DNA of 64,000 bases, from assembly GCF_044324875.1 (NCBI RefSeq), contig NZ_CP172185.1, one strand, 5' to 3'. Shown here piece by piece: positions 8,939-19,529 of the stretch. The notes beneath the pieces are model-generated. The model did no database searches. It saw only the letters and a list, made by a program, of their open reading frames with translations, and was not told where the DNA came from. The translations under genes were made by a program, and so were the position numbers. Numbering within the stretch: the first letter of the stretch is position 1; each line of letters begins with the position of its first letter. The DNA comes from Escherichia coli (GTDB taxonomy: Bacteria > Pseudomonadota > Gammaproteobacteria > Enterobacterales > Enterobacteriaceae).

Positions 8939-10630
8939 ATGAAAACGCTGCTGATTATTGACGCTAATCTCGGTCAGGCACGCGCCTATATGGCGAAGAC
9001 CCTGCTGGGCGCGGCGGCGCGAAAAGCAAAACTGGAAATCATCGACAATCCGAACGACGCTGAAATGGCGATTGTTCTCGGTGATTCCATCCCGAACGAC
9101 AGCGCGCTGAACGGTAAAAATGTCTGGCTGGGCGATATTTCCCGGGCAGTTGCGCACCCTGAGCTGTTCCTGAGTGAAGCCAAAGGCCATGCGAAACCTT
9201 ACACTGCGCCGGTCGCTGCGACAGCACCGGTTGCCGCCAGCGGTCCGAAACGCGTAGTTGCGGTGACTGCTTGCCCGACTGGCGTAGCACACACCTTTAT
9301 GGCGGCTGAAGCCATTGAAACCGAAGCGAAAAAACGTGGCTGGTGGGTGAAAGTTGAAACCCGTGGTTCTGTTGGCGCGGGTAATGCAATCACTCCCGAA
9401 GAAGTCGCAGCAGCGGATCTGGTGATTGTGGCGGCAGATATCGAAGTGGATCTGGCGAAATTTGCTGGTAAACCGATGTATCGCACCTCTACCGGTCTGG
9501 CGCTGAAGAAAACCGCGCAGGAACTGGATAAAGCGGTTGCTGAAGCAACGCCGTATGAACCGGCGGGCAAAACTCAAACAGCGACCACTGAAGGTAAGAA
9601 AGAGAGTGCAGGCGCTTATCGTCACTTGCTGACGGGCGTCTCTTACATGCTGCCGATGGTCGTTGCAGGTGGTCTGTGTATCGCGCTTTCTTTTGCTTTT
9701 GGTATCGAAGCGTTTAAAGAGCCGGGTACGTTGGCAGCGGCGCTGATGCAGATTGGTGGTGGTTCAGCCTTTGCGCTGATGGTGCCGGTACTGGCAGGTT
9801 ATATTGCCTTCTCCATTGCCGATCGTCCGGGCCTCACGCCGGGTCTGATTGGCGGTATGCTGGCGGTCAGCACTGGTTCTGGCTTCATTGGCGGTATTAT
9901 TGCGGGCTTCCTGGCTGGTTACATTGCGAAGTTAATCAGTACGCAATTGAAACTGCCACAGAGTATGGAGGCGCTGAAACCGATTCTGATCATTCCGCTA
10001 ATTTCCAGTCTGGTGGTCGGTCTGGCGATGATCTACCTGATCGGTAAACCGGTTGCTGGCATTCTCGAAGGGTTGACTCACTGGCTGCAGACCATGGGGA
10101 CTGCGAATGCGGTTCTGCTGGGGGCGATCCTCGGTGGCATGATGTGTGCTGACATGGGCGGTCCGGTAAACAAAGCAGCGTACGCATTCGGTGTGGGTCT
10201 GCTGAGTACTCAAACCTATGGCCCGATGGCGGCGATTATGGCGGCAGGTATGGTGCCACCGCTGGCAATGGGCCTGGCAACAATGGTGGCGCGTCGCAAA
10301 TTCGACAAAGCGCAGCAGGAAGGGGGCAAAGCCGCTCTGGTACTGGGACTGTGCTTTATTTCGGAAGGTGCAATTCCGTTTGCTGCTCGTGATCCGATGC
10401 GTGTGCTGCCGTGCTGTATCGTGGGTGGGGCGCTGACTGGCGCAATCTCAATGGCGATTGGTGCGAAACTGATGGCACCGCACGGTGGTCTGTTTGTTCT
10501 GCTGATCCCTGGCGCGATTACGCCGGTATTGGGTTACCTGGTAGCCATTATTGCCGGTACGCTGGTGGCGGGTCTGGCCTATGCCTTCCTGAAACGTCCG
10601 GAAGTGGACGCAGTAGCGAAAGCAGCGTAA
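8939..10630 (+). CDS. fruA: PTS fructose-specific IIB'BC component
   Basis: 563 aa, N-terminal IIB domains then multi-TM IIC. Confidence 0.93.
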   Translation: MKTLLIIDANLGQARAYMAKTLLGAAARKAKLEIIDNPNDAEMAIVLGDSIPNDSALNGKNVWLGDISRAVAHPELFLSEAKGHAKPYTAPVAATAPVAASGPKRVVAVTACPTGVAHTFMAAEAIETEAKKRGWWVKVETRGSVGAGNAITPEEVAAADLVIVAADIEVDLAKFAGKPMYRTSTGLALKKTAQELDKAVAEATPYEPAGKTQTATTEGKKESAGAYRHLLTGVSYMLPMVVAGGLCIALSFAFGIEAFKEPGTLAAALMQIGGGSAFALMVPVLAGYIAFSIADRPGLTPGLIGGMLAVSTGSGFIGGIIAGFLAGYIAKLISTQLKLPQSMEALKPILIIPLISSLVVGLAMIYLIGKPVAGILEGLTHWLQTMGTANAVLLGAILGGMMCADMGGPVNKAAYAFGVGLLSTQTYGPMAAIMAAGMVPPLAMGLATMVARRKFDKAQQEGGKAALVLGLCFISEGAIPFAARDPMRVLPCCIVGGALTGAISMAIGAKLMAPHGGLFVLLIPGAITPVLGYLVAIIAGTLVAGLAYAFLKRPEVDAVAKAA

Positions 10631-10640
10631 TAAAAGGTGT

Positions 10641-10671
10641 GTTACAGGGCAGAAATTTCCTGCCCTGTAAC
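10641..10671 (+). terminator. Perfect 12-bp-stem hairpin immediately after fruA stop
   Basis: gttacagggcag-aaatttc-ctgccctgtaac. Confidence 0.5.
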
Positions 10672-10787
10672 ATTTGATGCGCGCAAAGAGAATGACCGGT
10701 TTGTGAATGTAATTTTATGAATTTAAATGGTTTTATCTTTTAGTAGAAACCTGAAACCTTCATCAAACACTAAGGTTATTTCCTCAA

Positions 10788-10814
10788 GGGCAGATTAATT
10801 TCTGCCCTTTTTTA
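10788..10814 (+). terminator. Rho-independent terminator-like hairpin plus T-tract
   Basis: gggcagattaatttctgccc followed by ttttttatt. Confidence 0.6.
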
Positions 10815-11053
10815 TTGTTCCTGTTCTGTGCATCCCGTCACAAATTCCCCGTTTTTATAATTCAGGCATTTAATCGCGTTTTGTGAGCCTGCTCAAATCT
10901 GCCCATTTTGCCTCTCTGGCGGTAATTTACTTTACGTAAAACATGCATACTATGAGCACATGTTTAAATATGAACACATGTTTAAACCGTCTTTGCAGTA
11001 TCTATATTCTTGTGGATTGACAGGGTGGGTAATTTTTTACCAGAGGACGTGCT

Positions 11054-11995
11054 ATGCGCGAAAAGGATTATGTCGTAATTATAGGTTCGGCGAATATTGA
11101 TATCGCCGGATATTCACATGAATCATTAAATTATGCGGATTCAAATCCAGGTAAAATAAAATTTACGCCTGGTGGAGTCGGGCGAAATATTGCACAAAAC
11201 CTGGCGTTGCTGGGTAACAAAGCCTGGCTACTGAGCGCAGTAGGCAGTGATTTTTATGGTCAATCGCTGCTAACGCAAACCAATCAATCTGGCGTTTATG
11301 TCGATAAATGCCTGATTGTGCCGGGAGAAAATACGTCGAGCTATTTATCATTACTCGATAATACCGGTGAAATGCTGGTTGCTATAAATGACATGAATAT
11401 TAGCAACGCTATTACAGCTGAATATCTCGCACAGCACCGTGAATTTATTCAAAGGGCAAAGGTCATTGTCGCGGACTGTAATATCAGTGAAGAGACACTG
11501 GCATGGATTCTGGATAATGCCGCCAATGTACCTGTATTTGTCGATCCGGTTTCGGCATGGAAATGTGTCAAAGTGCGTGACCGTCTAAATCAGATCCACA
11601 CCCTGAAGCCAAACCGCCTTGAAGCGGAAACCTTGAGTGGGATTGCTTTGTCAGGGCGTGAAGATGTGGCAAAAGTTGCTGCCTGGTTCCATCAACATGG
11701 CCTGAACCGACTGGTAATGAGCATGGGCGGCGACGGCGTTTATTACAGTGATATCAGCGGTGAAAGTGGTTGGTCTGCGCCGATCAAAACCAATGTCATT
11801 AATGTTACCGGAGCGGGCGATGCCATGATGGCGGGACTTGCTTCGTGTTGGGTAGACGGAATGCCGTTTGCCGAATCTGTTCGTTTCGCACAGGGATGTT
11901 CGTCAATGGCGCTCTCCTGTGAATACACCAATAACCCCGATTTATCGATTGCCAACGTTATATCGTTAGTGGAGAACGCAGAATGTCTGAATTAA
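11054..11995 (+). CDS. psuK: Pseudouridine kinase (pfkB family)
   Basis: 313 aa MREKDYVVIIGSANIDIAG... Confidence 0.88.
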   Translation: MREKDYVVIIGSANIDIAGYSHESLNYADSNPGKIKFTPGGVGRNIAQNLALLGNKAWLLSAVGSDFYGQSLLTQTNQSGVYVDKCLIVPGENTSSYLSLLDNTGEMLVAINDMNISNAITAEYLAQHREFIQRAKVIVADCNISEETLAWILDNAANVPVFVDPVSAWKCVKVRDRLNQIHTLKPNRLEAETLSGIALSGREDVAKVAAWFHQHGLNRLVMSMGGDGVYYSDISGESGWSAPIKTNVINVTGAGDAMMAGLASCWVDGMPFAESVRFAQGCSSMALSCEYTNNPDLSIANVISLVENAECLN

Positions 11996-12921
11996 AAATT
12001 TCCCCTGAATTATTACAAATTTCCCCGGAAGTGCAGGACGCTTTAAAAAACAAAAAACCGGTTGTGGCGCTGGAATCGACCATTATTTCTCACGGGATGC
12101 CGTTCCCACAAAATGCCCAGACCGCAATTGAAGTTGAAGAAACTATTCGTAAACAGGGCGCTGTACCTGCCACTATCGCCATTATTGGCGGCGTGATGAA
12201 AGTGGGTTTAAGCAAAGAAGAAATTGAATTGCTGGGTCGTGAAGGGCATAACGTGACCAAAGTTAGTCGTCGCGATTTACCTTTTGTTGTTGCCGCCGGA
12301 AAAAATGGCGCAACTACCGTTGCTTCAACGATGATTATTGCGGCGCTTGCCGGAATTAAAGTATTTGCCACTGGGGGAATTGGTGGTGTGCATCGCGGGG
12401 CGGAACATACCTTCGATATTTCTGCCGATTTGCAAGAACTGGCGCACACCAATGTCACCGTCGTTTGTGCCGGGGCGAAATCTATTCTCGATTTAGGCTT
12501 AACTACCGAATATTTAGAAACTTTCGGTGTACCGCTAATTGGCTATCAGACCAAAGCGCTGCCTGCGTTTTTCTGCCGCACCAGCCCGTTTGAAGTCAGT
12601 ATTCGCCTTGATAGTGCCACGGAAATCGCTCGTGCAATGGCGGTGAAATGGCAAAGCGGTCTGAACGGTGGCCTGGTGGTGGCGAATCCGATCCCGGAAC
12701 AGTTTGCGATGCCGGAGGAATCTATCAATGCAGCCATAGATCAAGCCGTCGCCGAAGCCGAAGAGCAGGGCGTTATTGGTAAAGAAAGTACGCCATTCCT
12801 GCTGGCGCGCGTTGCTGAGCTGACCGGCGGTGACAGCCTGAAATCCAACATCCAGCTGGTGTTCAACAACGCCATTCTGGCGAGCGAAATTGCCAAAGAA
12901 TATCAGCGTCTCGCGGGTTAA
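11983..12921 (+). CDS. psuG: Pseudouridine-5'-phosphate glycosidase
   Basis: 312 aa MSELKISPELLQISPEVQDALKNKKPVVALESTIISHGMP...; overlaps psuK by 13 nt. Confidence 0.88.
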   Translation: MSELKISPELLQISPEVQDALKNKKPVVALESTIISHGMPFPQNAQTAIEVEETIRKQGAVPATIAIIGGVMKVGLSKEEIELLGREGHNVTKVSRRDLPFVVAAGKNGATTVASTMIIAALAGIKVFATGGIGGVHRGAEHTFDISADLQELAHTNVTVVCAGAKSILDLGLTTEYLETFGVPLIGYQTKALPAFFCRTSPFEVSIRLDSATEIARAMAVKWQSGLNGGLVVANPIPEQFAMPEESINAAIDQAVAEAEEQGVIGKESTPFLLARVAELTGGDSLKSNIQLVFNNAILASEIAKEYQRLAG

Positions 12922-13014
12922 TTTCTGACGGGCAGAAAGCCGTCGCCCGTACTCATCAAGCATACCAAAACCTGGCGCTGACGCCGGGTTTACTGGCATG
13001 AAGGGAAAATCATT

Positions 13015-14265
13015 ATGGATATAATGAGAAGTGTTGTGGGGATGGTGGTGTTACTGGCAATAGCATTTCTGTTGTCAGTGAATAAAAAGGGCATCAGTTT
13101 GCGCACGGTTGGAGCCGCACTGCTGCTGCAAATCGCTATTGGTGGCATCATGCTCTACTTCCCACCGGGAAAATGGGCAGTAGAACAGGCGGCATTAGGC
13201 GTTCATAAAGTGATGTCTTACAGTGATGCCGGTAGCGCCTTTATTTTTGGTTCATTGGTCGGGCCGAAAATGGATGTCCTGTTTGATGGCGCGGGCTTTA
13301 TCTTCGCCTTTCGCGTACTCCCGGCGATTATCTTCGTCACTGCGCTCATCAGCCTGCTGTACTACATTGGCGTGATGGGACTGCTGATTCGCATTCTTGG
13401 CAGCATTTTCCAGAAAGCTCTCAACATCAGCAAAATCGAATCTTTTGTTGCGGTTACCACTATTTTCCTCGGGCAAAATGAGATCCCGGCGATCGTTAAA
13501 CCGTTTATCGATCGCATGAATCGCAACGAGTTGTTTACCGCAATTTGTAGCGGGATGGCGTCCATTGCTGGTTCGATGATGATTGGTTATGCCGGAATGG
13601 GCGTACCAATTGACTACCTGTTAGCGGCATCGCTGATGGCGATCCCTGGCGGGATTTTGTTTGCACGTATTCTTAGCCCGGCAACCGAGCCTTCGCAGGT
13701 CACATTTGAAAATCTGTCGTTCAGCGAAACACCGCCAAAAAGCTTTATCGAAGCAGCGGCGAGCGGTGCGATGACCGGGTTGAAAATCGCCGCTGGTGTG
13801 GCGACGGTGGTAATGGCGTTTGTCGCAATTATTGCGCTGATTAATGGCATTATCGGCGGAATTGGCGGCTGGTTTGGTTTTACCAATGCTTCTCTGGAAA
13901 GTATTTTTGGCTATGTGCTGGCACCGCTGGCGTGGATCATGGGTGTGGACTGGAGTGATGCCAATCTTGCGGGTAGCCTGATTGGGCAGAAACTGGCGAT
14001 TAACGAATTCGTCGCTTACCTGAGTTTCTCCCCATACCTGCAAACGGGCGGCACGCTGGAAGTGAAAACCATTGCGATTATCTCCTTTGCGCTTTGTGGT
14101 TTTGCTAACTTTGGTTCTATCGGTGTTGTCGTTGGCGCATTTTCGGCTATTTCGCCTAAACGCGCACCGGAAATCGCCCTGCTTGGTTTACGGGCGCTGG
14201 CAGCAGCAACGCTTTCCAACCTGATGAGCGCGACCATTGCCGGGTTCTTTATTGGTTTAGCTTGA
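13015..14265 (+). CDS. psuT: NupC-family nucleoside transporter
   Basis: 416 aa multi-TM; close paralog of nupX in this window. Confidence 0.88.
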   Translation: MDIMRSVVGMVVLLAIAFLLSVNKKGISLRTVGAALLLQIAIGGIMLYFPPGKWAVEQAALGVHKVMSYSDAGSAFIFGSLVGPKMDVLFDGAGFIFAFRVLPAIIFVTALISLLYYIGVMGLLIRILGSIFQKALNISKIESFVAVTTIFLGQNEIPAIVKPFIDRMNRNELFTAICSGMASIAGSMMIGYAGMGVPIDYLLAASLMAIPGGILFARILSPATEPSQVTFENLSFSETPPKSFIEAAASGAMTGLKIAAGVATVVMAFVAIIALINGIIGGIGGWFGFTNASLESIFGYVLAPLAWIMGVDWSDANLAGSLIGQKLAINEFVAYLSFSPYLQTGGTLEVKTIAIISFALCGFANFGSIGVVVGAFSAISPKRAPEIALLGLRALAAATLSNLMSATIAGFFIGLA

Positions 14266-14272
14266 GTTTCAT

Positions 14273-14311
14273 TGCCGGATGTACGCGCTTATTTAGCGTC
14301 ACATCCGGCAA
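14273..14311. repeat. REP-like palindromic element between convergent psuT and yeiL
   Basis: gccggatgt...acatccggca palindrome. Confidence 0.5.
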
Positions 14312-14332
14312 TCGCTCTATTGCAAATAATTT

Positions 14333-14992
14333 TTACTGCATCATCCCTGAGAATTTATTTTCCGGGTCCATCTCCAGTGCCAGTCCTGACAACTGCTTTC
14401 TGTTTTTAATTAGATACCCTTTCTTGCTTTTAATTAATAAACCGTCGTGAATGAATTGCGCTAGAACATATAAAAGATGTCGATAAGAAACGCCTAAATA
14501 CTCTGCCGCTTGCGTATGCTTTTCGTGATAAAGATCACCTTCCTGCGAGAGTAATATAAAAGCTGCCAGGCGATTCACTAACGGAAATGATTGATTCTGA
14601 GTTAAAGAAACAATATTGCGATAATTTTTATGGCTTAAAGTAACGCAGAGTTTTCGTAAAAATAGCGTGTCGTTTAATAACAGCGGACGGTAATGTTTCA
14701 TAGGGAGCGCAAGGCACCAACACTCTTCAATAGCCTGTACCGCACGCGGTTCATGGTCTTTGTCGATTAACTCAATCTCGCCAATAAAACAGGGAGCGGC
14801 AAAGAAATCGATCAGCGACACGCGACCATTAGCTAGCGTGGCGTAAAGCCTGGCGCGGCCTCGCGTCAGGTAAAACAGCCAGGACGGCTGTTGCCCTTCC
14901 TGCACAATGTAGTCACGCGCTAAAAAATGAAACAGCCGCGTATCGGCTGAAACATCCGTTGAAAAGCAATCCTTAAACGCGGATTCACTCAT
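14333..14992 (-). CDS. yeiL: Crp/Fnr-family transcriptional regulator
   Basis: Track ORF 232 aa; start at MSESAFKD gives 219 aa with cNMP-binding-like domain and C-terminal HTH. Confidence 0.8.
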
Positions 14993-15160
14993 CAATTGCT
15001 GCTTAAGGTCATTATTGTGGATTTCTTTCACGATGTTTATCCGCTATGAGATTTCTCATATTTAGCATACTTACGCTGTTGTTAAGATTCAATCATCGGC
15101 CCGGTCGAATTTTCTTTGCTGTAGAAAAAATAACGCAACTGGAAACAGAGGAAATAAACA

Positions 15161-16102
15161 ATGGAAAAGAGAAAAATTATTCTGGATTGTGATCCGGGTC
15201 ATGATGATGCTATTGCCATAATGATGGCAGCGAAACATCCGGCAATAGATTTATTAGGCATCACCATTGTGGCGGGTAATCAGACGCTTGATAAAACATT
15301 AATTAATGGCCTGAATGTTTGCCAGAAACTGGAGATTAATGTTCCGGTTTATGCGGGGATGCCACAGCCCATTATGCGTCAACAAATCGTTGCCGACAAT
15401 ATTCATGGTGAAACAGGACTGGATGGCCCGGTATTCGAGCCGCTGACCCGCCAGGCAGAAAGTACCCATGCGGTGAAATACATCATTGATACCCTGATGG
15501 CAAGCGATGGCGATATCACTCTGGTGCCGGTTGGCCCACTTTCAAACATCGCGGTGGCAATGCGTATGCAACCCGCGATCCTGCCGAAAATCCGTGAAAT
15601 TGTGCTGATGGGCGGCGCTTACGGTACTGGCAACTTTACGCCATCCGCCGAGTTCAACATCTTTGCTGACCCGGAAGCCGCACGCGTGGTGTTCACCTCC
15701 GGCGTTCCGTTGGTGATGATGGGCCTCGATCTCACCAACCAGACCGTTTGCACCCCGGACGTGATTGCCCGGATGGAAAGGGCAGGCGGCCCTGCCGGAG
15801 AGCTGTTCAGCGACATCATGAACTTCACTCTCAAAACCCAGTTCGAAAACTATGGCCTGGCTGGCGGCCCGGTGCACGACGCCACCTGCATCGGTTATCT
15901 GATCAACCCTGATGGCATTAAAACCCAGGATATGTACGTCGAAGTGGATGTTAACAGTGGCCCTTGCTATGGGCGTACCGTCTGCGACGAGCTGGGCGTT
16001 CTTGGCAAGCCAGCCAATACCAAAGTCGGCATCACTATTGATACCGACTGGTTCTGGGGCTTAGTCGAAGAGTGCGTGCGCGGCTACATCAAAACCCATT
16101 AA
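15161..16102 (+). CDS. rihB: Pyrimidine-specific ribonucleoside hydrolase
   Basis: 313 aa, N-terminal DCDPGHDDA nucleoside hydrolase motif. Confidence 0.9.
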
Positions 16103-16201
16103 GTGTTGATAACAAGCCGGGCCGGTATCGCAAGATGCAGGCCCGGCTATTTCTGATGGGCAGAAAGCCGTCGCCCAAAATGACATGAAGAGATAATAAC
16201 T

Positions 16202-17452
16202 ATGGATGTCATGAGAAGTGTTCTGGGAATGGTTGTATTGCTGGCAATTGCGTTTTTGCTGTCAGTAAACAAGAAGAAGATCAGCCTGCGTACCGTTGGC
16301 GCGGCGTTAGTGTTACAGGTCGTGATTGGCGGCATTATGCTTTGGTTACCACCAGGGCGTTGGGTCGCTGAAAAAGTCGCTTTTGGAGTCCATAAAGTGA
16401 TGGCCTACAGCGACGCGGGTAGCGCATTTATCTTTGGTTCTCTGGTCGGACCGAAAATGGATACCTTATTTGATGGCGCAGGATTTATCTTTGGTTTCAG
16501 GGTATTACCGGCAATTATCTTCGTTACAGCACTGGTGAGTATTCTCTACTACATCGGTGTGATGGGGATCTTAATTCGCATTCTCGGCGGTATATTCCAG
16601 AAAGCATTGAATATCAGCAAGATTGAGTCATTCGTCGCGGTCACTACCATTTTCCTCGGGCAAAACGAAATTCCGGCAATCGTCAAACCCTTTATCGATC
16701 GTCTGAATCGCAATGAATTATTTACGGCTATTTGTAGTGGCATGGCCTCGATTGCTGGTTCGACAATGATTGGTTACGCCGCACTGGGCGTGCCTGTGGA
16801 ATATCTGCTAGCGGCATCGTTAATGGCGATCCCCGGCGGGATCTTGTTTGCCCGCCTGTTAAGCCCGGCTACCGAATCTTCGCAGGTTTCCTTTAATAAC
16901 CTCTCTTTCACCGAAACACCGCCAAAAAGCATTATTGAAGCCGCCGCTACAGGGGCTATGACCGGACTGAAAATCGCCGCAGGTGTGGCGACAGTGGTGA
17001 TGGCATTTGTTGCAATAATTGCGTTGATTAACGGTATTATCGGCGGCGTTGGCGGCTGGTTTGGTTTTGAACATGCCTCGCTGGAGTCCATTTTAGGTTA
17101 CCTGCTGGCCCCGCTGGCGTGGGTGATGGGGGTTGACTGGAGTGATGCGAATCTTGCCGGGAGTTTGATTGGACAGAAACTGGCGATTAATGAATTTGTC
17201 GCTTACCTCAATTTCTCACCTTATCTGCAAACAGCTGGCACTCTGGATGCTAAAACCGTGGCGATTATTTCCTTCGCGTTGTGCGGTTTCGCTAACTTTG
17301 GTTCTATCGGGGTGGTGGTGGGGGCGTTTTCTGCGGTTGCGCCACACCGTGCACCGGAAATCGCCCAGCTTGGTTTACGCGCGCTGGCGGCGGCGACACT
17401 TTCTAACCTGATGAGTGCCACCATTGCAGGATTCTTTATTGGCTTAGCGTAG
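16202..17452 (+). CDS. nupX: NupC-family nucleoside permease
   Basis: 416 aa, highly similar to psuT (13015-14265). Confidence 0.88.
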   Translation: MDVMRSVLGMVVLLAIAFLLSVNKKKISLRTVGAALVLQVVIGGIMLWLPPGRWVAEKVAFGVHKVMAYSDAGSAFIFGSLVGPKMDTLFDGAGFIFGFRVLPAIIFVTALVSILYYIGVMGILIRILGGIFQKALNISKIESFVAVTTIFLGQNEIPAIVKPFIDRLNRNELFTAICSGMASIAGSTMIGYAALGVPVEYLLAASLMAIPGGILFARLLSPATESSQVSFNNLSFTETPPKSIIEAAATGAMTGLKIAAGVATVVMAFVAIIALINGIIGGVGGWFGFEHASLESILGYLLAPLAWVMGVDWSDANLAGSLIGQKLAINEFVAYLNFSPYLQTAGTLDAKTVAIISFALCGFANFGSIGVVVGAFSAVAPHRAPEIAQLGLRALAAATLSNLMSATIAGFFIGLA

Positions 17453-17507
17453 TGCGCGAGTTATGAGCCGGATAAGACGCGGTCAAGCGTCGAATCCGGC
17501 AACATTG

Positions 17508-18596
17508 TTACACCATCGGCACTAATGAAAGCGCGTTATCGGCAGACAGGGTAGGGTTGTTTAAGCTGCCGCTGGCGCGTGAAATTGCCGCGCAGGCCAT
17601 CGCAAAACGGGCGCTGTCACGGAAATTGTTTCCCTCCAGAAAGCTATATACCAGGCCCGCCATAAAACCATCGTCAGCACCAAAACTGTCTACTGTCGTA
17701 TGCGCTGGCGCTGTCAGCAAAAATTGCTCTCCATCCTTTTCGCTGCAATAAACTGACTCATCGGGCAAATAAACAAACAGTTGCTGAACGCCTTGCTGAT
17801 GCAACGCATTCACTGCGGCATTACGGTCAGCATCGCTGGTGATCGCCTGTCCCCATAAAATTTCCAGCTCCGGTAAAGTGGGTTTCAGGGTGTGAATATG
17901 CGCCAGCCAGTGTTTGATTTTGCCCGCTTTGAATTCTGAAACGGTATCGACAAACACCGGGATTTCATCAGCGAGGGTAAAGACCCACTCCAGCGCCTCG
18001 GCTGTCAGGTTGCAATCAGCCAGTACCACGCCCGCATGACGAAGTAAATCGCGCGACCCGTTCAGTAGTTGCGGTGTCAACTGATCCAGCAGATGGGTAT
18101 CGTTAATCGCCAGCACGATTTGATCGTCTCGATCGGCAATTGCCAGATACGTCGATGTGCTTTGGCCATGTAAACGAACGCAGCCGGAGACATTCACGCC
18201 GGCGCGGCGCGTTTCTTCCAGGAGCATTTCGCCATAAAAGTCATCGCCAATCACTGAAAGCAAATGGACGTCGCGGCCTAACAGCGCCAGATTGTGGGCG
18301 ATATTGCGTCCAACGCCGCCTGCCGAGCAATGAATGGTACCGGGATGAGAAGCCGCTTGCGGGTAACGGATATCCGCCATCCCGCGAATATCCATATTGA
18401 TTGTCCCCACCACTACGCAGTATTCCTGCTCGGTGAGAATGTAACCTTTGCCTTTAATCCGACCTTTGCGCATTAAATCCATAATATGCGCCGCAACGCG
18501 CGAACGGCTGATTTGCAGCATATCAGCAATTTCGTTCTGCTGAATCAGCGGGTTACGCCGTAAAATTGCAAGGATCTCCTTCTCCCGGTTGTTCAT
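17508..18596 (-). CDS. yeiI: Putative sugar/nucleoside kinase with N-terminal HTH (pfkB family)
   Basis: 362 aa; kinase domain paralogous to psuK. Confidence 0.82.
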   Translation of the reverse strand: MNNREKEILAILRRNPLIQQNEIADMLQISRSRVAAHIMDLMRKGRIKGKGYILTEQEYCVVVGTINMDIRGMADIRYPQAASHPGTIHCSAGGVGRNIAHNLALLGRDVHLLSVIGDDFYGEMLLEETRRAGVNVSGCVRLHGQSTSTYLAIADRDDQIVLAINDTHLLDQLTPQLLNGSRDLLRHAGVVLADCNLTAEALEWVFTLADEIPVFVDTVSEFKAGKIKHWLAHIHTLKPTLPELEILWGQAITSDADRNAAVNALHQQGVQQLFVYLPDESVYCSEKDGEQFLLTAPAHTTVDSFGADDGFMAGLVYSFLEGNNFRDSARFAMACAAISRASGSLNNPTLSADNALSLVPMV

Positions 18597-18598
18597 CT

Positions 18599-19456
18599 TC
18601 AGGCTACCGCTTTTTCAGTTTGTTGCGCTTTCAGCCAGGCGATCTCTTCTGCCCAGATATCCGGGTTGATGGTTTCAAGGATCAGCGGAATGCCGTCGAA
18701 ACGGTCGTCCTGCATGATCCAGCGGAACGCATCATGACCGATATTGCCTTCACCGAGGCTATGATGGCGGTCAACGCGGCTGCCAAAGGTGCTTTTCGCA
18801 TCGTTAAGGTGCATCCCGCGCAGATACTTAAAGCCGACAATACGGGCAAAATCCGCGAACGTTTTCTCGCATTCGGCTGGAGTACGCAAATCATACCCGG
18901 CAGCAAAAGCATGGCAGGTATCAATGCAGACGCCGACGCGGGATTTATCTTCAACGCCGTCGATAATCGCCGCGAGATGTTCGAATTTAAACCCTAAGTT
19001 ACTGCCCTGACCGGCGGTGTTTTCAATCACCGCTGTCACACCATGAGTTTTATCCAGCGCAATGTTGATGGATTCGGCAATACGCGCAAGGCAATCCTCT
19101 TCTGAAATCTGCATCAGATGGCTGCCAGGGTGGAAGTTGAGCAAAGAAAGCCCCAGCTGTTCGCAACGCTGCATTTCATCTATAAACGCATCGCGCGATT
19201 TTTCCAGAGCTTCAGCGACCGGATGTCCGAGGTTAATCAGATAACTGTCGTGGGGAAGAATTTGCGCCGATGTGTAGTGATATTTTTCACAGGCGGCTTT
19301 GAATTCATCGATGGTTTGCGTCGTGAGCGGTGCGGCACGCCACTGACGTTGGTTTTTGGTGAACAAGGCAAACGCGGTTGCGTCGATTTCGGCGGCGCGA
19401 ATTGCGGCATTTGCCAGACCGCCAGCAGCACTAACGTGCGCTCCAATGTATTTCAT
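18599..19456 (-). CDS. nfo: Endonuclease IV (AP endonuclease)
   Basis: 285 aa [39 protein letters not shown]... Confidence 0.93.
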
Positions 19457-19529
19457 GCGAGGACTCCTGTTAAACCCGCTGGAGGAAAACGGTAATGATA
19501 GCGGGTTAACAGGAGCAAGATGTAGTGGT

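Follow-up and report, generated by a model that had tools for sequence, protein, structure and literature searches.

A short hairpin conserved across Enterobacterales upstream of the paralogous nucleoside transporter genes psuT and nupX, a putative cis-acting mRNA leader element

The window analyzed here, a 64 kb stretch of the Escherichia coli chromosome, covers the region fruBKA-psuKGT-yeiL-rihB-nupX-yeiI, and this study concerns a hairpin of about 23 bases, designated P1, that lies in the leaders of its two nucleoside transporter genes, psuT and nupX. Downstream of fruA (8939–10630) follow psuK (11054–11995), psuG (11983–12921) and psuT (13015–14265, ATG at 13015), then yeiL on the minus strand (14333–15031), rihB (15161–16102) and nupX (16202–17452, ATG at 16202); yeiI (17508–18596) and nfo, both on the minus strand, come after nupX. 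PsuT and NupX are CNT-family nucleoside transporters with 88% protein identity and 79% DNA identity; of the nucleoside-salvage loci in E. coli, psuKGT and rihB-nupX belong to the least understood. The substrate of PsuT is known by inference only. NupX has been characterized as a weak uridine/cytidine carrier (PMC11241209).

The initial annotation of the window reported a 27-nt repeat upstream of both transporter genes, and this repeat is real: the psuT copy (TTTCTGACGGGCAGAAAGCCGTCGCCC, plus strand, exact match) and the nupX copy (TTTCTGATGGGCAGAAAGCCGTCGCCC, 16150–16176, plus strand, one mismatch) agree at 26 of 27 positions, and no match was found in 100 dinucleotide shuffles. The nupX copy lies where it had been placed, but the psuT copy occupies 12922–12948 rather than 12923–12949, and the reported spacing of 55–65 nt before each start codon was imprecise, as the psuT copy ends 66 nt and the nupX copy 25 nt before the ATG. 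The first base of the psuT copy is also the final base of the psuG stop codon, and the nupX copy is found 47 nt past the rihB stop codon, behind a strong hairpin. The flanking sequences, described as diverged, are so upstream, where different genes precede the repeat, but downstream the two leaders are still homologous (CATGAAGrGAwAAT..TATGGAT) except for a 41-nt indel. Searched genome-wide with blastn, as had been suggested, 5,426 complete E. coli genomes had the motif at a median of two and a maximum of three places per genome. Within the psuT and nupX coding sequences (CDSs), a 26/27 match also occurs once and exact runs of 19–20 nt occur three times, while third codon positions are 53% identical; the 27-nt match is therefore unusual only in comparison with neutral sites, and at that level of third-position identity a neutral 27-mer should have decayed.

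To place the repeat in a wider context, one scan of species-representative genomes was used, which yielded 59 loci with 48 distinct leaders from approximately 20 genera; the leader statistics below refer to this set. Two arrangements, psuK-psuG-transporter(-yeiI) and yeiL/rihB-transporter, are widespread in Enterobacterales, and in both the psuG-to-psuT and the rihB-to-nupX context a common core, NN-GGGC-A-G/NNNGCNGU/C-GCCC-NN (that is, NN-GGGCAG-NNN-GC-N-GTCGCCC-NN), was found upstream of the transporter gene in Enterobacteriaceae, Erwiniaceae, Yersiniaceae and Hafniaceae. Orthologous loci were inspected for absence of the motif, which the initial annotation held would speak against it, and the core proved present in nearly all of them. 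Mean pairwise identity reached 94% at the ten stem positions and 93% at four loop positions (G10, C11, G13 and U14), compared with 90–96% at codon positions 1 and 2, 52% at codon position 3, 41% in the variable loop and 31–40% in the flanks. When the two classes were compared across different genomes, core identity was 81%, against 50% at third positions. This indicates that the constraint is real, but that it extends over about 14 defined nucleotides and not over the 27-mer, whose first 6–8 nt are not kept in other genera (flank identity 31%) and whose helix runs 1–2 nt past its 3′-end; in the psuT copy only 12928–12948 falls within the cross-genus element. P1 is the only module that all leaders of both classes have in common, and it is kept at loci with yeiI but without yeiL as well as at loci of the reverse composition. 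Two E. coli genomes carry deletions at this locus: in NZ_AP022171.1 (L182) a natural deletion has left a 66-nt nupX remnant with P1 intact, and in NZ_CP019259.1 (L183) an IS1-mediated deletion reaches from psuG into the 5′ part of rihB; the P1 stem of the latter genome has a C-to-A change. A search for PsuT homologues did not reach beyond the loci already compared, the relatives listed all having at least 87% identity. A metagenome scan with YGGGCAGNNNGCNGTCGCCCR was dominated by chance matches in contigs of 60–75% G+C and is uninformative on other contexts: among the 122 matches listed, 117 fell within long open frames, and a downstream transporter gene was seen in Escherichia-type contigs only.

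The conserved core folds as a single hairpin. In the psuT leader P1 spans 12928–12950 on the plus strand (columns 6–28 of alignment A4) and reads AC-GGGC-[A bulge]-G / loop AAAGCCGU / C-GCCC-GU, with a predicted −9.8 kcal/mol; in the nupX leader it spans 16157–16177 on the same strand (T-GGGC-[A]-G / AAAGCCGU / C-GCCC-A) and is contained in the minimum-energy fold of its 117-nt context. Two outer bases pair on each side, GGGC pairs with GCCC, A5 is bulged and G6 pairs with C15, giving a stem of 6–7 base pairs (bp) and an 8-nt loop with a fixed G-C-N-G-U; the outermost pair is C-G in the psuT copy and U-A in the nupX copy. Evaluated on A4, 91.9% of cells form standard pairs and five of the seven pairs change on both sides, through C-G/U-A (30/11), A-U/G-C (16/11), G-C to U-A once in Enterobacter sichuanensis (L020) and G-C to A-U twice in Hafnia (L035). 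None of 500 shuffles reached the observed values, and slid partners were only 33–51% paired. RNAalifold recovers P1 unaided in both leader classes, and the hairpin occurs in the minimum-energy fold of 43 of the 48 leaders. A different hairpin, GACGG/CCGTC, had been proposed for the 27-mer, and in E. coli it can form (−8.6 kcal/mol for the 27-mer alone); it is not the conserved fold, since only 67% of its cells are paired and, in two thirds of the sequences, two of the five pairs do not form. Only the C that Escherichia has at the variable loop position makes it possible, and in the E. coli psuT leader it is weaker than P1 (−8.5 versus −9.8 kcal/mol), as it is in 47 of the 48 leaders, E. coli among them. 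A TTTCTG-N5-CAGAAA palindrome was likewise discarded as a conserved element, being 46% paired, and an H-type pseudoknot joining both E. coli hairpins would leave connecting loops of 0–1 nt.

As to the strand on which P1 acts, in E. albertii and E. coli WP5-S18 (L182) the two outer pairs have become G.U and U.G wobbles through changes of A to G and C to U, and such wobbles preserve the helix only in the sense RNA; six further G.U pairs were found at G6-C15. These changes make a good, though not decisive, argument that P1 would function in sense-strand RNA. A small open reading frame (ORF) or stop-codon read-through over P1 was rejected, as indels in the linker disrupt the frame from one genus to another and the pattern of covariation is unlike that of coding sequence. 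On the opposite strand, an ATG-initiated ORF of 154 amino acids (12535–12999, minus strand) lies antisense to the 3′-end of psuG and extends across P1; nothing comparable exists at the nupX copy, and the ORF is likely to be spurious.

Beyond P1, the leaders of the two classes are built differently. In psuT-type leaders P1 starts 7–12 nt after the psuG stop codon and is followed by a linker, a second hairpin (P2), a second (C)CTGGC, the ribosome-binding site (RBS) and the ATG. The E. coli linker (12951–12967, plus strand, ACTCATCAAGCATACCA; consensus ATATCAGACATACCAAAA) is C/A-rich and predicted to be single-stranded; it is conserved in both gene classes and most genera, and has been lost from the E. 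coli (K-12) nupX and the C. amalonaticus/sedlakii psuT leaders. P2 (12968–12991, plus strand, AAACCTGGCG-CTGA-CGCCGGGTTT) is terminator-like but below the terminator criterion, and reads AAACCUGGCG-loop-CGCCGGGUUU in psuT-type leaders, in 20 of which RNAalifold finds it as a consensus helix of nine pairs; its sequence is nearly invariant and its changes are one-sided only. Leaders of the rihB type usually have a lineage-specific hairpin past the rihB stop codon and then P1, the linker and the RBS, and P2 is absent except in Klebsiella spallanzanii. In E. coli this hairpin is a strong, interrupted one of 14 bp (16115–16148, plus strand, AGCCGGGCC..GGCCCGGCT), terminator-like but below the scan criterion, with a T-rich tail, TATTTCTG, that runs into the 27-mer, whose TTTCTG at the 5′-end forms this tail; other genera have unrelated hairpins at this place, including a canonical terminator in a Pluralibacter metagenome-assembled genome (MAG; L037). 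The RBS regions of the two genes are homologous (plus strand; psuT 13000–13017, with GAAGGGA at 13000–13006 before the ATG at 13015; nupX 16187–16204, with GAAGAGA at 16187–16193 before the ATG at 16202). The psuT ATG (13010–13027) is predicted to lie in a local hairpin, TCATTAT-GGAT-ATAATGA, and the nupX RBS and ATG (16180–16212) to be enclosed by a hairpin ATGACAT...ATGTCAT. The 41-nt segment of the indel comprises the linker and P2 (12951–12991) and is absent from nupX at 16177/16178. Direct CCTGGC repeats flank this segment in other genera, corresponding in E. coli to 12971–12976 and to a CTGGC at 12993–12997, which suggests a deletion or insertion by slippage between the repeats.

To evaluate how specific P1 is for the transporter leaders, a covariance model of P1 (R1) was used. 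It scored 38.1 bits on the plus strand of the psuT site (10.4 on the minus strand) and 37.7 bits on that of the nupX site (9.4 on the minus strand), and nothing else in the window exceeded 12 bits. Two terminator-like hairpins downstream of fruA (10640–10672, minus strand, and 10786–10809, plus strand), both containing GGGCAG...TTTCTGCCC, include a weak R1 match of 11.9 bits in one of them and are probably ordinary terminators. Across the 59 loci (~650 kb), R1 matched leader sites only, with none in the distant CNT loci L048–L060, none upstream of psuK and none in the yeiL-rihB intergenic region of any locus, and P1 is also missing upstream of nupC, the third CNT gene of E. coli. Scans against Rfam 15 by E-value (window positions 10000–19500, six whole loci and two short leaders) gave no convincing match to P1. 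The best one, isrJ (RF01393), a Salmonella Hfq-binding small RNA (sRNA), covers 12918–12992 and is alike in layout, with a 5′ segment, a linker and a terminator-like hairpin; membership was rejected, as the match scores 18.9 bits against a gathering score of 37 and aligns AAUUUCUGA and the P2 stem while skipping P1. A weak naRNA4/CssrE match between nupX and yeiI (17466–17514, both strands, 23.6 bits against a threshold of 59.5 bits) may reflect a palindrome of the repetitive extragenic palindrome (REP) type.

Several other known classes were tried and set aside. P1 is not an intrinsic terminator, being followed by GUACUCAUC or AAAAUGAC with no direct U-run, and P1, P2 and the rihB hairpin all fail the scan criterion. 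The small number of places per E. coli genome, together with the lack of further R1 matches in the window and the ~650 kb of loci, excludes a REP or bacterial interspersed mosaic element. A sigma-54 promoter (TGGCAC-N5-TTGC) does not fit, as in GGGCAG-N6-GTCGC the GC element is two bases too far from GG, and a CsrA site does not fit either, as the loop consensus lacks GGA, which occurs only in the RBS. A ribonucleic antiterminator (RAT) of the BglG/SacY type was rejected because P1, ending at 12950, does not overlap P2, which starts at 12968, and because the terminator-like hairpins of the rihB class lie upstream of P1. Full-text literature held no leader element, riboswitch or sRNA site for these genes, most papers in subscription journals lying outside the search, and in the literature searched nothing was found on the regulation of either transporter and no published YeiL target motif; leads from MazF, sRNA and SELEX (systematic evolution of ligands by exponential enrichment) studies were uninformative for P1. 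What P1 does display are the features of a generic cis-regulatory mRNA leader, namely sense orientation, a single gene family downstream and conservation with covariation across taxa.

Based on these observations, the explanation we favor, to which we give about even chances, is that P1 may be a cis-acting hairpin of the sense-strand mRNA leader that serves as a sequence-specific recognition site. Conserved cis-acting leader structures are a known kind of element, and P1 itself is previously undescribed in Rfam and the searched literature. Sequence specificity is suggested by the stem identity and by the four loop bases, which are as constrained as codon positions 1 and 2 and would not be needed by a generic hairpin. 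No sigma-70-like promoter was found adjoining either P1 copy or within P1 and the linker, and the orientation is always that of the gene, which points to transcription of P1 within the operon mRNA. P1 would thus be the 5′ module of a leader that accompanies the psuT/nupX transporter cistron irrespective of the enzyme gene upstream; a trans-acting factor, most likely a protein, would recognize it and set how strongly the transporter cistron is expressed, separately from the enzyme genes transcribed with it. Candidate routes are mRNA processing or stability, or translation initiation 12–60 nt downstream of P1; in psuT-type leaders, where P1 is followed by the linker and the terminator-like P2, attenuation via P2 is a possible output. 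Judged from the comparative data, P1 probably controls transporter expression at the mRNA level. Therefore, the cis-regulatory RNA or DNA element put forward in the initial annotation stands insofar as both sites contain a constrained element, most likely a cis-acting RNA, while three parts of the reasoning behind it do not.

Several points weigh against this explanation. The thermodynamic z-scores average a modest −1.5, few independent events underlie the covariation, with the C-G/U-A switch partly following the paralogue split, and on the antisense strand three C.A mismatches at one pair would become wobbles. P1 is replaceable or dispensable in some lineages, since in the Entomohabitans psuT leader an unrelated hairpin of 13–14 bp takes its place while the linker and a P2-like hairpin are kept, and since it is degenerate in E. 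sichuanensis and the Pluralibacter MAG. Its distance to the start codon and its placement relative to the terminator-like hairpins differ between the two classes. In addition, no expression, transcript-end or binding data on P1 were found in the literature searched, and we know of no candidate RNA-binding factor for it. A further-reaching version, which we consider improbable, is that P1, alone or with the linker, might be the sensor of a new post-transcriptional control of pseudouridine and pyrimidine nucleoside uptake in Enterobacterales, either as the operator of an RNA-binding regulator or as a very small metabolite-binding RNA, tuning the transporter apart from the catabolic enzymes. In any case, a 14-nt signature constrained like coding positions across a bacterial order offers a mutable handle on transporter regulation, including a possible RNA-binding factor or ligand.

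Among the alternatives, the one that survives best, though we still regard it as unlikely, is that P1 is a generic structural element, an intercistronic hairpin that would act as a 5′ stabilizer after RNase E processing or as a barrier to 3′-exonucleases and thereby uncouple transporter from enzyme mRNA with no specific factor involved. Its position between cistrons, immediately after psuG in the psuT class, agrees with this, as do the unrelated hairpin at the same place in Entomohabitans, the lineage-specific stem extensions in Citrobacter, Hafnia and Izhakiella, and the AU-rich segments resembling RNase E sites that precede P1 in Escherichia and Citrobacter. A generic hairpin, however, should drift in its stem and be free in its loop, yet GGGC/GCCC and the four loop bases remain 93–94% identical in about 20 genera; moreover, P1 tracks the transporter and not the upstream gene, and the rihB class already has a hairpin after the stop codon.

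More doubtful is a DNA operator, in which the inverted repeat GGGC-N11-GCCC would be bound as a duplex by YeiI or YeiL and act as an internal operator or roadblock. Both proteins have DNA-binding domains, YeiI being a PfkB-family sugar kinase with an N-terminal winged helix (HTH_24, E = 2e-10) and YeiL a CRP/FNR-type protein; among the cross-genus loci yeiI, convergent with the transporter gene, flanks nearly every psuKGT locus, and yeiL is present at every rihB-nupX locus. The near-constant neighborhood of yeiI and its winged helix make YeiI a candidate local regulator. The inverted repeat is conserved in sequence, and a genomic SELEX peak of the RpoS holoenzyme was mapped inside psuG (MG1655 coordinate 2255672 as printed; PMC5493296), which could mark an internal psuT promoter. 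Nevertheless, symmetry is limited to GGGC/GCCC, the inner halves (A-G... versus ...G-T-C) being asymmetric, so a palindromic operator was rejected; the outer pairs covary, which operators do not need, and the wobble changes would be mismatched half-sites. The psuK and yeiL-rihB promoter regions, where a local regulator should bind, have no P1-like site, P1 persists with either of yeiI and yeiL in the absence of the other, and no promoter is adjacent.

A quite different account denies the 27-mer any function as such and attributes the near-identity of the E. coli copies to a gene-conversion tract whose 5′-end falls by chance at TTTCTG. We compared psuT (13015–14265) and nupX (16202–17452) of the window with loci L013, L029 and L030 and counted sites supporting concerted evolution versus orthology: 61/24 for E. 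coli versus C. amalonaticus, 56/31 for E. coli versus Phytobacter, 43/23 for E. coli versus Entomohabitans and 80/26 for C. amalonaticus versus Phytobacter. Concerted sites thus outnumber orthologous ones in every genome with both paralogues, mostly in the 3′ half (CDS nt 600–1250), and within-genome psuT/nupX identity ranges from 79% (E. coli) to 88% (C. amalonaticus). This excess of sites grouping the paralogues within a genome indicates that psuT and nupX exchange sequence by gene conversion, which matters for calling conserved non-coding elements from paralogue comparison. Both E. coli 27-mers also share states absent from all other genera, namely the flank TTTCTGA and the loop C in ...GCCGTC... 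(loop AAAGCC), and the two Phytobacter copies differ much more than the E. coli pair. Part of the 26/27 identity is therefore recent homogenization, and conservation after duplication, the argument from which regulation had originally been deduced, is invalid here. Such a tract accounts for the flank and the variable part of the loop; it explains neither the 14 positions that the two classes share across genomes nor the 81% core identity against 50% at third positions, which includes genomes with only one of the two loci. Taken alone, gene conversion is thus refuted for the core by the cross-genus comparison and holds for the first 6–8 nt of the 27-mer; as the whole explanation we consider it very unlikely.

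The least probable alternative is a very small riboswitch in which P1 and the C/A-rich linker would bind a metabolite such as pseudouridine or a pyrimidine nucleoside or base and switch P2 termination or RBS access: highly conserved unpaired nucleotides in a covarying stem, exclusive association with one transporter family and, in the psuT class, the order of hairpin, single-stranded A-rich tail, terminator-like hairpin and a CCUGGC repeat able to pair with the P2 3′ arm would suit it. Of the features of an aptamer, P1 displays one covarying helix and four fixed loop bases; an additional helix, a junction or a pseudoknot kept by both classes was not found. A single hairpin of 23 nt, however, offers no evident pocket. 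For the loop (GCNGU) and the arms no conserved complement was found in the linker, P2 or RBS (inspection of A3, A5 and A6), the loop shows no covariation with the linker or RBS (A3), and there is no consistent expression platform: E. coli nupX and part of the Citrobacter leaders lack the linker, nearly the whole rihB class lacks P2, and no conserved pairing was found by which P1 would alternatively engage P2 or the RBS.

Returning to the favored explanation of P1 as a recognition site in the mRNA leader, three groups of known systems offer a comparison. The preQ1-I and guanidine-II/mini-ykkC riboswitches are similarly small, with conserved G-C pairs and loop bases, and like them P1 has an A-rich 3′ tail in most leaders and stands upstream of a transporter gene; unlike these minimal riboswitches, P1 has no Rfam match, second hairpin or pseudoknot partner, and its tail and P2 are dispensable in many leaders. 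The malE-malF REP hairpin and the ompA 5′ stem-loop resemble P1 in position, as P1 is intercistronic and in the psuT class comes right after the upstream stop codon, and like them it could set different levels of enzyme and transporter. Hairpins of these two kinds work by stability, and REPs occur in hundreds of copies, whereas P1 is present in two copies per genome and is conserved in both stem and loop sequence. The third group consists of protein-recognized mRNA operator hairpins with a sequence-specific loop, such as the phage MS2 coat-protein operator, the thrS operator, the BglG/SacY RAT and the PyrR binding loop. P1 has no sequence resemblance to these sites and no known binding protein, and it overlaps neither the RBS nor a terminator arm, lying about 17 nt from P2, which the nupX class lacks; nevertheless, it shares with them a short stem, a bulged purine (a single A in P1), fixed loop nucleotides, covarying outer pairs and a position in an mRNA leader ahead of the cistron under control.

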